41,668 bases of DNA from a virus (lineage: Duplodnaviria; Caudoviricetes): the IMG/VR virus record IMGVR_UViG_3300027506_000001, positions 1 through 41,668 of that record; one strand, written 5' to 3'. Numbering within the stretch: the stretch's first letter is position 1; the number at the start of each line of letters is the position of its first letter. Both the position numbers and the translations under genes were made by a program. Of the stretch, positions 6,905-41,668 are shown piece after piece. The notes below the pieces were generated by a model. It worked only from the letters and a program-made list of their open reading frames with translations, did not search any database and was not told the DNA's origin.

Positions 6905-6959
6905 AATGTTAAAAAAATAAAAGTCTTTTAGTTAAACAATACTGCAATTTATAACATAT

Positions 6960-7280
<321 letters not shown>

Positions 7281-7656
7281 ATTGAAAATAGATTCTTAGC
7301 TGAAATAATAACATATATACACTCTTCGCACTTAACACTAACAAAAATTGCTTATAATCGCTTAGAATCGCTTAGAATTGCAAATAAGACTATATTAATC
7401 CGATTTATTTTTTTTTGAAGTGATCTAATTAGTAGTTAATTAGTTGTCCCAAAATCCAAAGGGAATCTATTTTTTTAGGTTCCCTTTCCTTCTTTCTTTC
7501 TTCTTACAAATAAGATTCAGCTTATCTTCACAAAATTATTTAATTAATTTTAGTTCGTACTATTCGTACCTAGTACGAGCGATACGAATTTAATTTTTGT
7601 CACCATTTTTTCTTTTGAAAATAAGAAAGCACTAGTATTTTTATTTGAGTTTTTTC

Positions 7657-34800: not shown

Positions 34801-35742
34801 ATGATAAATTTAGATGACAGATTTATAACAGAAACAATGCCTATAATCGGAGCCAAGGCAACAGTAATTTTATTAGCTATTGCAAAGCATTTAGATGTTA
34901 ATAAGAAAGCATTTCCATCAAAATATACAATTCAAAAATATACGGGATTGGGTAGAGATGCAGTAACAAATGGAATAAATCTACTAGTAGAAAATGATAT
35001 TTTAGAAAAAAAACAAAGGAGGAATGGTGCAAGGCAATCTTCTAATCTTTATAGTGTTAAATGTAACTACTTGACAGTTTATGTTAAAGCTAATAAAAGT
35101 TTTCAGCCTACTGAAAGTCAGCCTACTGAAAGTCAGCCTACTGAAAGTCAGCCTACTGAAAATCCGCTACTAAGTATTAACAAGAAAGGAAGTATTAACA
35201 AAGAGAAAAGTATTAACAAAGAAGAAGTAAAGTTTTCTTTTGAAATTAATTCTAAGAAATGGAGTAAAGAACAAAGGGATAAAGGATTTGAATTATTTTG
35301 GGAAAAATATGATTTAAAACAATCAAAAGGAGTAGCAAAGGTATCTTGGTATAAAGTATGCAAAAATGGAAATGCAAAAAAAGCATTTGATGGAATAGAT
35401 GCTTATAAAAAACATTTATCAGTTGAAACTTGGAAAAGAACTAAAATGGTAAGTACATGGCTAAATCAAGAATCTTGGGATGATGAATACAAAGGAATTA
35501 TAAAAACTAATAATTTAGGGAAACAAAAATTTCAGCATTTTGGTATAAATCATCTTAATAATAATCTGGCTGATGATAGATATTATTTTATTAATAGATT
35601 ACAAGAGTTAAACAAATTTAGAAAAGAAAGCATAAAAAAAACTTTGGAAAATAAGGTTCTTGGATTGGGTATTGTAAGTGACCAAGAAAAGTACCTTTTT
35701 ATAATTAAAAACTTTTCAAAACAAGATTTTCACTTAAAATAA
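34801..35742 (+). CDS. Replication initiator (N-terminal wHTH)
   Basis: AFPSKYTIQKYTGLGRDAVTNGINLLVE...SNLY HTH, FELFWEKY and STWLNQESWDDE. Contains internal repeats and lies upstream of the helicase. Confidence 0.8.
   Translation: MINLDDRFITETMPIIGAKATVILLAIAKHLDVNKKAFPSKYTIQKYTGLGRDAVTNGINLLVENDILEKKQRRNGARQSSNLYSVKCNYLTVYVKANKSFQPTESQPTESQPTESQPTENPLLSINKKGSINKEKSINKEEVKFSFEINSKKWSKEQRDKGFELFWEKYDLKQSKGVAKVSWYKVCKNGNAKKAFDGIDAYKKHLSVETWKRTKMVSTWLNQESWDDEYKGIIKTNNLGKQKFQHFGINHLNNNLADDRYYFINRLQELNKFRKESIKKTLENKVLGLGIVSDQEKYLFIIKNFSKQDFHLK
35104..35219 (+). repeat. Iteron-like repeats within the initiator gene (candidate origin)
   Basis: CAGCCTACTGAAA(G/A)T x4 with a 15-nt period (35104-35163), then AAGTATTAACAA x3 with an 18-nt period (35172, 35190, 35208). 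Confidence 0.8.
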
Positions 35743-39401: not shown

Positions 39402-39457
39402 TTATAACGGACGTGGCTATGCGCTTGTACTTGTATGGCGTATAGGTGTTGTTGTGC
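39402..39457 (+). mobile_element. attC-like site A
   Basis: TTATAAC, ctatgcgc/gcgtatag stem, GTTGTGC. Confidence 0.7.
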
Positions 39458-39534
39458 TTATGTTCTTTTGCGGTTATGTAAAAATATATTTACTTTTATT
39501 TGGTAGATTGTAAATTTATGTTTACATTTGAATC

Positions 39535-39747
39535 ATGAAAGCAATTATAAAATATAAAAACGGTTGGATTTTAGAAATACCAACAATAGGAACTGCACCA
39601 ATGTTATTATTGGAATGGGTTTCAGAATTTAGAATGGGTAAAATGCCTATTGATAAAGTAATTAATACCGACAATTTTCACATTAGGTTTAATATTCCTA
39701 AAGCAGAAATTGAAAAGTGTGCTGAATACATAAACGCAAATTTATGA
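39535..39747 (+). CDS. Cassette 1 ORF a, hypothetical
   Basis: 70 aa, with its own TACATTTG element at 39523 just before the ATG. Confidence 0.65.
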   Translation: MKAIIKYKNGWILEIPTIGTAPMLLLEWVSEFRMGKMPIDKVINTDNFHIRFNIPKAEIEKCAEYINANL

Positions 39748-39923
39748 ATTGGCATAAAAGATACAAAGCAATGAAATTGGGGTTAGGATTGACTAACTCC
39801 GACATTGCTGATATAACAGGCAATAGTGCTGATTCTGTTAAATCAGTCACTCAACCAAATAAAGATATACCACGTTGGCTTAAACTTGCTATTGTTGTTT
39901 ATGAACGGATGCAAGCAAAATAA
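39744..39923 (+). CDS. Cassette 1 ORF b, HTH-like protein, 59 aa (not in ORF track)
   Basis: MNWHKRYKAMKLGLGLTNSDIADITGNSADSVKSVTQPNKDIPRWLKLAIVVYERMQAK, with an ATGA overlap to ORF a. Confidence 0.7.
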   Translation: MNWHKRYKAMKLGLGLTNSDIADITGNSADSVKSVTQPNKDIPRWLKLAIVVYERMQAK

Positions 39924-39927
39924 TTAA

Positions 39928-40058
39928 GCACAACTTTAAAGGCTATGCGTAGTTGCGTAGATAATAACTAAATAATACAGAAATGAAAATTAATACAGGA
40001 CAAACTATTAGACGATTAAAAGCAGAAAATAAGCAATTACGTATAGGTATTGTTAGCC
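39928..40058 (+). mobile_element. attC-like site B (long loop containing a translation start)
   Basis: GCACAAC, ctatgcgtagttgc (39943) / gcaattacgtatag (40033) stem, GTTAGCC. Confidence 0.72.
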
Positions 40059-40162
40059 AACAACGTGAACTGTTACAATGCTTTTGCAAATTAGCCAACA
40101 TAACACACGATACAGTTGATAAAGATATTGAAGATACGATATACAGATTTAACGCATTGTAA
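39983..40162 (+). CDS. 59-aa ORF spanning the site B crossover point (not in ORF track)
   Basis: MKINTGQTIRRLKAENKQLRIGI|VSQQRELLQCFCKLANITHDTVDKDIEDTIYRFNAL. The GTT core at 40052 is the Val codon. Confidence 0.65.
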   Translation: MKINTGQTIRRLKAENKQLRIGIVSQQRELLQCFCKLANITHDTVDKDIEDTIYRFNAL

Positions 40163-40166
40163 TTGT

Positions 40167-40205
40167 GGCTGACGATAGGAAGCTGACGTATAGGTGTTGT
40201 TAGGC
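40167..40205 (+). mobile_element. Truncated attC-like site C
   Basis: GGCTGAC...cgtataggtgttGTTAGGC. The right arm is identical to site A and the left stem arm is missing. Confidence 0.55.
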
Positions 40206-40241
40206 TTAGTACGATTTAATAATAACTAAAATAATTTAAAG

Positions 40242-40487
40242 ATGAAAATGTATAAAACAGGTGGTTGGAGAGAACTAATTGAAGTAGTAGAACCAACAAA
40301 AGTAACAGAAAAAAGTGTGTGGTTAGCAAACGGAAGAAGTGCTAAAAGAAGTAATTACGGAAATTACTGGGATACATTAGAAGAAGCAAAAGAACACCTT
40401 ACGGAAAAGTATAATAGAATGATAGAATCTTCTGAACGTAAAATAGAAAAGGCAAAAGCTGATTTAGAAGCACTAAGTAAGTATTAA
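40242..40487 (+). CDS. Cassette 3 hypothetical protein
   Basis: 81 aa. The stop codon abuts the site D left core. Confidence 0.75.
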   Translation: MKMYKTGGWRELIEVVEPTKVTEKSVWLANGRSAKRSNYGNYWDTLEEAKEHLTEKYNRMIESSERKIEKAKADLEALSKY

Positions 40488-40553
40488 GCCTAATGGTTTT
40501 GTATGCGCAGTAGATGCGCATAGTATCTATTGCCGTCATACACTTTGTTCGAC
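40488..40553 (+). mobile_element. attC-like site D
   Basis: GCCTAAT, tgtatg/cataca and gcagtagatgc/gtatctattgc stems, GTTCGAC. Confidence 0.7.
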
Positions 40554-40591
40554 ACAGGCTTTTTATTTTTTAATCTTTTAATCTTCCAATC

Positions 40592-40870
40592 ATGGACATA
40601 GATAAACTTATTAATGAAGAAAAGAAAAGGCACAATTCAAATATGTCTTTCCTTAAAAGACAAAAAACAATTTTTGAAAAAAGTAAATTAAGAACAGATA
40701 AAGAACGTGCTGTTTTGATGTACAAAAGACTATTTAAAGAAAACAATAAATTGTTTCAAGAACTTTTATTCAAAGCAAAAAATAATATTGTTTCACCACA
40801 TGATTATATTCATTCTAATATGATTCTTGAATCGGAAAGGCAATTGAAAGAAGAATGTAAAATTCTTTAA
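40592..40870 (+). CDS. Cassette 4 hypothetical protein
   Basis: 92-aa ORF inside the inverted ends gttcgacacaggc/gcttgtgtcgaac. Confidence 0.7.
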   Translation: MDIDKLINEEKKRHNSNMSFLKRQKTIFEKSKLRTDKERAVLMYKRLFKENNKLFQELLFKAKNNIVSPHDYIHSNMILESERQLKEECKIL

Positions 40871-40913
40871 TTTTTTTATCGGCACAATGTTTTGATTTTT
40901 TTTCATTGCTTGT

Positions 40914-40970
40914 GTCGAACGCAAAGCTAGACGTAGTAACTTAGTTATTAACGTCTAGCGTTTGTTATTT
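40914..40970 (+). mobile_element. attC-like site E
   Basis: GTCGAAC, gctagacgt/acgtctagc stem, GTTATTT. Confidence 0.72.
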
Positions 40971-40987
40971 AAAAACAAAACTTAAAT

Positions 40988-41200
40988 ATGGAACGAGAAA
41001 AAATAGATTTTACAGACAAAGAACTTTATTATGTAGCACTTGCCTTTGAGAGCCACTTAAATAGTAGAGATACTTGGATAAGTAAAGAAGGTGCAAAAGT
41101 GATAAATAACGCTATTAAAAAGATAACCGAAAATGGATTAAAAAGGAAGAACCCTAAATCTATTTTACACCCAATATACCAATTTGAAAGCGAAGATTAG
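40988..41200 (+). CDS. Cassette 5 hypothetical protein
   Basis: 70-aa ORF between sites E and F. Confidence 0.7.
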   Translation: MEREKIDFTDKELYYVALAFESHLNSRDTWISKEGAKVINNAIKKITENGLKRKNPKSILHPIYQFESED

Positions 41201-41206
41201 TATTAC

Positions 41207-41263
41207 TTATAACATCAAGCTAGACGTAGTAATTTAGTTATTAACGTCTAGCATTTGTTATTT
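41207..41263 (+). mobile_element. attC-like site F
   Basis: TTATAAC, gctagacgt/acgtctagc stem, GTTATTT. Confidence 0.72.
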
Positions 41264-41281
41264 AAAAACAAAACTTTTAAT

Positions 41282-41623
41282 ATGGATAAACAATATCAAA
41301 ACTTGTTAAAAGACATTATCGAAAACGGAGAAAAAAAATTTAAAATAGAAAGAACAGGTATTTATGATTTGATTTTTCGTGCAAAATGTACAAAAGAGGA
41401 TTTACATGAATGCTTAAAATATATTGATGCAAATGATAATTATAGAACACCACTTGAGTTGAATGTAGATGGTGTATTATTTAAGTTGGGTAAAAATGGA
41501 TTATCAGGGAGAGTTTTTCTTTATAGAAAGGAGGAAAATGAATGGAATATGAAACAATCTAATAGAAGTTTTTTTCCTCAAGAGTTTATCGAAATTAGAA
41601 TCAGAATTGTAAAGTATCTTTAA
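41282..41623 (+). CDS. Chimeric ORF: ThyA-like N-terminal 19 aa fused to an unrelated sequence
   Basis: MDKQYQNLLKDIIENGEKK versus Thy[20 protein letters not shown]. The ATG at 41282 is preferred. Confidence 0.7.
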   Translation: MDKQYQNLLKDIIENGEKKFKIERTGIYDLIFRAKCTKEDLHECLKYIDANDNYRTPLELNVDGVLFKLGKNGLSGRVFLYRKEENEWNMKQSNRSFFPQEFIEIRIRIVKYL

Positions 41624-41668
41624 GAATTAAAAATACTTTACATCTTAATTTGAAAAAACAACACCAAG
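41570..41668. repeat. Terminal direct repeat, identical to 1-99
   Basis: Direct sequence identity. Confidence 0.95.

Follow-up and report, generated by a model that had tools for sequence, protein, structure and literature searches.

The window analyzed here, the whole 41,668-nt stretch of the virus record IMGVR_UViG_3300027506_000001, contains near its end a row of attC-like hairpins and small genes. One of these genes raises an unusual question, because it opens within the loop of a hairpin and is read out through the GTT of the putative crossover point into the cassette behind. Does recombination at such a site create new proteins, and which piece of DNA moves? The answer that we regard as probable, taken as a whole, is an inverted attC-like cassette which moves as a complete unit through breaks at AAC and undergoes a second, in-frame exchange near the GTT.

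The phage genome and its array of hairpin sites

The window is a circular marine phage genome with a 99-nt terminal repeat, encoding terminase, portal and head proteins, primase/helicase, endolysins, ThyA and a YqaJ exonuclease. Its host group is probably Bacteroidota/Flavobacteriaceae, since the linker motif of the gene described below matched six loci in bacterial genomes (four in Flavobacteriaceae records, one in a Flavobacteriales bin and one on a short contig assigned to another bin) and the best useful match of the array in a blastn search of cultured phages, which yielded short matches only, was Polaribacter phage Freya. An A-rich low-complexity tract (~6950–7350), poly-Phe if read on the minus strand, is non-coding, lies ahead of the early genes and is possibly an origin or an assembly feature. 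An iteron-like 15-nt tandem repeat is located within the replication-initiator gene (35103–35165).

The array runs from 39402 to the window end and then across the origin to thyA; the AAC of site A (39406) is its left edge. The relevant features are:

161–946, phage genome: intact thyA
2075–2758, phage genome: YqaJ exonuclease gene
39402–39459, plus strand: site A, a short hairpin (AAC 39406–39408, GTT 39451–39453)
39406–39931, plus strand: mobile unit 1 (site A body and cassette 1), missing from the relative L191
39535–39747 and 39744–39923, plus strand: ORFs of cassette 1
39926–40060, plus strand: site B, a 120-nt hairpin (inverse core 39926–39934, core GTT 40052–40054)
39943–39956, 39957–40032 and 40033–40046, plus strand: left arm, loop and right arm of site B
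39983–40162, plus strand: 59-aa read-through ORF (ATG 39983, TAA 40160–40162)
39983–40051, plus strand: N-module of 23 aa, coded by the loop and right arm of site B
40052–40075, plus strand: core and common 24-nt linker (VSQQRELL), with a second GTT at 40072–40074
40072–40163, plus strand: inner C-module, bordered by its own inverted repeat (40072–40081/40154–40163)
40166–40207, plus strand: remnant of site C (right arm and GTT 40199 kept, AAC and left arm gone)
40199–40494, plus strand: cassette 3 (ORF 40242–40487, closing AAT 40492–40494)
40486–40555, plus strand: site D (GTT 40547)
40547–40920, plus strand: cassette 4 (ORF 40592–40870, ends complementary over 9/9 nt)
40912–41276, plus strand: sites E and F flanking cassette 5 (60-nt direct repeats, 8-bp arms, spacer offset 1)

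Sites A and B have the attC layout, that is, an AAC inverse core, a GTT core, an imperfect inverted repeat and an unpaired central spacer. The cassette ends are complementary, as expected of attC cassettes, over 9/9 nt in cassettes 1 (39451/39926) and 4, and with AAT in cassette 3, while cassette 2 is damaged; in relatives, 203 closed cassettes were found. Two or more attC sites without an integrase make a CALIN, and the window has sites A, B, D, E, F and the remnant of C, as counted with a purpose-built structure caller and by inspection. The array thus works like an attC cassette system and qualifies as CALIN-like, with inverted, modular genes, but not as a complete integron.

Site C lacks ~24 nt (the AAC and left arm) relative to intact copies (L017, L032). 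The deletion falls between two GGCT copies, the same lesion is present in L191, and in run X6 a loose contig end at 40167 shows the left arm intact. Positions 40166–40175 (TGGCTGAC) were also considered as a point-mutated inverse core, a reading rejected in favor of a damaged site C by comparison with L017 and L032. The remnant is likely no longer a recombination substrate and, because site C is deleted, cassettes 2 and 3 are now likely joined into one unit with site B.

A third copy of the E/F-type repeat lies at ~97–160, spanning the terminal repeat, ahead of thyA; together with sites E and F it forms a sub-array of 60-nt repeats (40912–41668 and 1–946). The ORF from 41282, immediately before the intact thyA, has a thymidylate synthase-like start (PHROG match of residues 2–32) and then diverges. 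In a contig from run X4, 389 different letters stand between two 60-nt repeats.

On its sense strand site B forms a 14-bp stem enclosing a 76-nt loop, with a left spacer 3 nt longer than the right one. Its folding energy alone did not exceed that of shuffled sequences (z −0.28), so its standing rests on family evidence. The structure-based caller (left-arm profile plus arm pairing) found 382 sense versus 4 antisense sites in 213 anchor loci, calling both A and B; an earlier, stricter version gave 316 sense, 3 antisense and none in Markov-shuffled copies. Family arms differ in sequence yet keep their pairing, with a strand asymmetry in folding (95 G-T pairs versus 21 C-A combinations). In 49 well-paired anchor sites the left spacer is 2–3 nt longer; by ungapped scoring the arms of the site B family pair in register, the extra nucleotides sitting in the spacer. 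Site lengths are discrete, at about 45, 85, 120, 190 and 270 nt. An Rfam scan of the whole window gave 0 matches at E up to 1, and a loose right-arm pattern retrieved chiefly chance matches in unrelated genes of viral contigs. It should be added that the longest hairpin bodies (>230 nt; L064, L101, L133, L159, L166, L202, L253) enclose a whole gene in their loop; behind them there is often an empty unit of ~26 nt, from GTT to the next AAC.

The read-through gene and its exchangeable parts

The first-pass annotation had described an ORF that starts in the loop of site B and uses the GTT as a codon, and this description was borne out. The ATG at 39983 lies inside the loop, and the GTT at 40052 is codon 24 (Val), in frame and directly preceded by QLRIGI. 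Cassette 2 has no start of its own: neither ATG nor GTG occurs in frame in the 37-codon segment from 40052, whose sole alternative starts are one CTG and a terminal TTG. Site B thus supplies the start codon and the N-terminal 23 aa, as proposed, and both halves were found with many other partners. The region is not an assembly artefact, since an independent contig from run X4 spans 39614–40154 with 0 differences and L191 is identical at 282/283 positions from the AAC of site B on.

The 59-aa protein has no Pfam family, Pfam and PHROGs yielded no function, and its nearest ESM Atlas clusters share no common family; AlphaFold (mixed alignment, pTM 0.45) predicted a single long helix. With the contigs of 4 of 24 runs compared to the window, those of one metatranscriptome cover cassettes 1, 3 and 4 and not the ORF; such contigs decide neither absence nor transcription.

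A search with the 59-aa query returned 34 proteins, namely its own cluster, 17 sharing only the front and 16 sharing only the back; none of these 33 others carried both halves together, and the partner changes at V-SQQRELL. The back half occurs with about 15 front families (grouped by eye). A front-only search, free of bias toward the back half, gave 27 proteins, 21 of them with this front, which is joined to 17 back families including that of the window (again by eye). An in-frame upstream ATG precedes 69/70 distinct linker cores, the one miss being a contig end. Among 212 read-through genes (host loci L185 and L186 left out), at least two partners were found for 18/22 multi-member N families and 18/23 C families; these counts depend on the 80% thresholds used to define families, and at least one multi-partner family (L123/L302) has probably been split falsely. 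Most loci were gathered by motifs from this gene or its arm, so linker-type genes are favored in the collection. By these comparisons, front and back halves are re-paired among relatives, and the arrays likely constitute a natural mix-and-match library of tiny proteins.

Single-base codon changes were synonymous in 81/130 cases in N loops and 95/150 in inner C parts, against an expected fraction of 0.18–0.26. At the level of codon substitution this shows both halves to be under purifying selection and evolving as coding sequence in the predicted frame, and it is indirect evidence that both are translated. Many back halves carry CxxC...CxxC motifs, which suggests that zinc ribbons have been grafted onto helical fronts in many relatives.

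Is the junction always at the GTT, and always in one frame, as the first-pass annotation implied? With regard to the frame, the dominant Val phase was recovered, while a single frame was not. An ORF of at least 12 codons on either side of the GTT is present in 101/151 long sites and absent from 50/151; the GTT is Val in 71, its G is a third base in 12, and its GT are second and third bases in 21 (three sites counted twice). These 151 sites are not linker-selected, but adjoin motif-selected ones and are no random sample. Testing the loop alone, with stops in the arms disregarded, gave 86/19/26 of 165. The phase classes come with matching back halves: no N family was seen in two phases and only two C families were.

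A junction that lies exactly at the GTT in every case is not supported. The motif VxQQRE[LQ]L is kept by 14/17 partner families of this front, compared with 17/83 in the arm-selected background (Fisher p = 2e-6), and most swaps therefore fall in or behind the 24 common nucleotides. Core and linker together were matched by 78 viral and 121 metagenome loci. In the 16 pairs of like hairpin bodies with both neighbors different (see below), the sequence common from the G onward at the right breakpoint was 3, 4, 5, 6, 6, 7, 10, 11, 11, 16, 23, 23, 24, 28, 31 and 31 nt; the 23–31 group is mostly linker-motif-selected, and one 31 is an empty 26-nt unit. Thus 6/16 pairs break near the GTT, 3–7 nt into the core.

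The second GTT, at the linker end, occupies one codon phase in 97/97 genes having it, two of which have their first GTT in a different phase, and it opens the inner inverted repeat. Extended end-complementarity was found in 79/150 long-site cassettes, compared with ~6% when ends were paired at random. Inner modules are also present beneath unlike cores, the inverse cores having changed along with them (L124/L265). The gene is accordingly three-tiered, its tiers being the front, the core with its linker, and the inner back.

These junctions bear directly on the strongest competing explanation, according to which re-pairing is short-homology recombination only, carried out by a phage exonuclease and annealing protein in the repeated arm and linker; a site-specific enzyme would then act at AAC only, and in-frame reading would be a by-product of genes that grew into the hairpin. 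The linker kept by 14/17 partners and the YqaJ exonuclease gene fit this explanation. So do P0036, in which this loop is followed by another right arm, and the shared inner module of L124 and L265, which together mean that breaks occur at several conserved points. It is harder to reconcile with L045, L110 and L303, where cassettes with distinct cores stand behind bodies sharing 1 nt before the GTT, and with a zinc-ribbon-like C-module without the linker that has four different N-modules with unlike arms, including that of this gene. Both cases need a crossover at ~11 nt of homology or less, which is not decisive. We regard short homology alone as a serious contender, though a rather doubtful one, and prefer the reading with a second exchange at or near the GTT.

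The unit that moves and its polarity

Which piece moves can be seen in L191. This relative is identical to the window at 597/600 positions upstream of site A and at 282/283 from site B on, and lacks the 526 nt between (39406–39931), cut within AAC; the DNA upstream of the site A AAC is joined straight to site B and the 59-aa gene is kept whole. As the indel lies at AAC, the moving unit is the hairpin with the cassette behind it. The first-pass annotation had taken the hairpin as part of the upstream cassette; the loss of that cassette at AAC, with the gene intact, speaks against this.

The same was evident from 27 pairs sharing a hairpin body (at least 82% identity, among 304 long sites, ORF-less and whole-gene bodies included). 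Only the upstream neighbor differs in 5 pairs, both differ in 16, both are the same in 6, and in no pair is the upstream neighbor kept while the downstream one changes. Ordinary excision and integration of cassettes as the maker of the fusions is not supported. Hence, of the proposal that recombination gives new fusion proteins, the re-pairing of halves survives and the travel of the N-half with the upstream cassette does not. At the left breakpoints 15/21 share only 3–4 nt, 3 share 5–10 and 3 scored 0, one of these because a copy reads AAT. A mirror test on cassettes, with a small sample of 10 pairs, agreed with this and gave only the next body different in 1, both different in 5, both the same in 4 and only the previous body different in none.

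The frequency of changes on both sides could also be explained by complete two-strand exchange between two folded hairpins, which would swap the loops (body or inner module) in one step and change both neighbors at once. The class in which both neighbors differ is indeed the commonest in both tests (16/27 and 5/10), beyond the R box the cassette ends pair into a second stem, and in P0019, P0023, P0032 and P0034 the residues just before the Val change along with the core. However, frequent AAC moves combined with rarer GTT events yield the same table, and in several pairs the spacer before the GTT is kept while the core changes. We therefore hold this exchange unlikely.

The polarity of the sites was established by comparison with bacterial chromosomes, where arrays of this site family were found in Seonamhaeicola sediminis (L185) and in a bin assigned to Flavobacteriaceae (L186). 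Genes lie on the opposite strand in 9/9 closed cassettes of these host arrays, and on the sense strand in 48/55 closed viral and metagenome cassettes; the phage-sense strand folds better than its complement in 95/105 short sites. This opposite polarity of phage and host-array genes explains the movement bounded by AAC. In attC sites the folded strand is cut between the A and C of AAC (Nivina 2020, PMC7439510), and by analogy the strand cut at AAC here would be the phage coding strand. The host arrays fit the canonical attC arrangement, in which the site follows its gene and the G/TT crossover is on the gene-sense strand. The phage arrangement departs from it: the site lies ahead of its own gene and overlaps it, and breaks routinely occur at the AAC of the gene-sense strand. 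Among the host cassettes, inserted read-through cassettes of the phage type were found as well. In addition, a single AT-rich read-through cassette was found at ~537 of L183, in a GC-rich Maribacter sp. chromosome with no evident array or prophage, which suggests insertion at a secondary site.

If canonical polarity were nevertheless assumed, the hairpin and N-module would be the tail of the upstream cassette and each G/TT excision or insertion would make a new fusion. Extensive re-pairing and the 6/16 pairs breaking 3–7 nt into the core could be read in this way. Against it stand the empty class among the 27 pairs, the indel of L191, the host arrays and strand folding, which put the canonical crossover at the phage AAC, and the three phases, with which random GTT joins would mostly be out of frame; we consider it very improbable. 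Still less credible are metagenome-assembler chimeras at a common repeat: most records are metagenomic and arm plus linker offer up to ~45 common nt, but many C-sharing pairs have just 24–28 nt in common at the junction, an isolate-genome gene (L184) and a viral contig (L152) have a front in common and diverge after GTTA (by eye), and read-through genes are present in isolates and in the cultured phage Freya_10.

What enzyme could act at AAC? No phage recombinase was detected in the window (tblastn best E 0.28), no Pfam integrase among the 30 small and medium ORFs scanned there, and no recombinase in G001 (63% complete). IntI as a product of this phage was rejected, none being encoded, and the integrase in cis that marks a complete integron is absent from the window. 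A recombinase lies within the 1–3 kb flanks of only 1 of the phage and metagenome loci L001–L415, so the link to an enzyme rests on five neighborhoods. In a PF00589 search of five Flavobacteria genomes, 30 loci were examined. Host sites lie, in host polarity, behind a Xer-like recombinase of 391–393 aa (L423, L424), and in prophage L431 they lie before a 282-aa one. This phage layout, with the recombinase directly behind the sites, recurs in L450 and in cultured Polaribacter phage Freya_10 (L446, 3844–4962), where the read-through gene Freya10_10 stands immediately before a 271-aa integrase. The tyrosine recombinases next to sites in these five cases combine PF00589 with a SAM_4 domain. Their TIGR02249 (IntI) scores, each split over two stretches, fall below the cut-off of 265 bits (L423 196, L424 192, L431 106, Freya10_11 97). 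Two loci hold relatives of the L431 recombinase, one of them with sites, and site calls were also obtained near transposon-type integrases (L436, L443). For the phage studied here the recombinase would be supplied in trans.

The chromosomal arrays in Flavobacteriaceae (L185, L186, L423, L424) have ~120-nt attC-like sites, with which the recombinase of 391–393 aa, below the IntI cut-off, is co-oriented. By their sequences they appear to be an integron-like system of its own.

A proposed inverted cassette system and its known counterparts

We propose that the gene is part of a cassette in an integron-like array carried by a Bacteroidota-type phage, and that it is inverted with respect to its own attC-like site, so that it would start in the hairpin loop and be read out through the GTT box. 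The cassette would move whole when the AAC to the left of the hairpin is broken, the likely agent being a Xer-like tyrosine recombinase of the host or of a co-infecting phage acting on the sense strand, presumably folded as a single strand. A second exchange, at the GTT or shortly after it, would give the halves new partners in frame. This exchange is likely the less frequent one, a view derived from the missing class, as pairs with both neighbors different (16) outnumber whole-cassette moves (5). It may be a mix of opposite-strand crossover at the GTT, as in pairs sharing only 3–7 nt, and crossover anywhere in the common arm and 24-nt linker, which would account for most swaps of this family. 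The products would be diversified accessory proteins under host-driven selection.

Parts of this picture have precedents. CALINs are known from virulent phages, where IntI1 recombined five of the six sites assayed (Qi et al., 2023, PMC9892861); that set includes Polaribacter phage P12002L, with divergent sites. Like them, the present array brings attC-like sites together with small genes in a phage that encodes no integrase of its own, but the available portions of that paper describe no in-site starts, read-through, re-pairing or systematic gene inversion, unlike what is seen here.

With integron attC sites, as far as the accessible account goes (PMC7439510), the array shares AAC...GTT boxes, paired arms, an unpaired central spacer, a variable terminal loop, strand-biased folding and a break within the AAC of the folding strand. 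It differs in that (i) the folding strand is the gene-sense strand and the loop codes for protein; (ii) the spacers are asymmetric by 2–3 nt, with no arm bulge evident in ungapped scoring; and (iii) neighboring recombinases score below the IntI cut-off and a second stem extends beyond the R box.

A natural protein translated through attC into the next cassette is GCUF1-OXA-28 (Hocquet et al., 2012, PMC3375312), presented in the accessible text as a single accidental fusion of two whole cassettes with the second silenced; here, in contrast, hundreds of genes under selection have start-less backs that rely on hairpin-coded fronts. Embedding synthetic attC sites in proteins, so that the site likewise doubles as coding sequence, was put forward as an engineering proposal for module shuffling (Nivina et al., 2020, PMC7439510, in the part available), and the present arrays look like its natural counterpart.

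Intron-phase exon shuffling also sorts modules into phase classes. The phage arrays are alike in this respect, but shuffle at the DNA level and without splicing.

In the literature covered, which included few subscription papers, we did not find inverted loop-started genes, phase classes, or systematic re-pairing or read-through. Phage attC clusters, one natural fusion across attC and engineered embedding are already published; added here are the clean AAC indel for this gene, the polarity of host arrays, the linker with its second GTT, and the recombinase neighborhoods with a cultured test system. In Polaribacter phage Freya_10, whose read-through gene precedes its own recombinase, it is already possible to test which enzyme acts, on which strand and where the swap occurs.

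The findings would let a large group of small hypothetical proteins in phages be understood as mosaics instead of families, and they carry a warning that homology searches with such proteins join unrelated halves. They also point to a cassette system of Flavobacteriaceae barely detected by integron finders; for Bacteroidetes one complete integron is reported in the accessible part of Neron et al. (2022, PMC9024848). We tentatively suggest, at somewhat less than even confidence, that Bacteroidota phages have repurposed a non-IntI cassette system of their hosts as a dedicated protein-diversification machine, with the second, in-gene crossover also made by a recombinase. If so, genes would be inverted in their cassettes, one crossover would move whole genes, and a second, in-gene crossover would shuffle fronts, linkers and backs under phase rules. 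The result would be thousands of microproteins in a combinatorial library, amounting to natural exon shuffling at the level of DNA.
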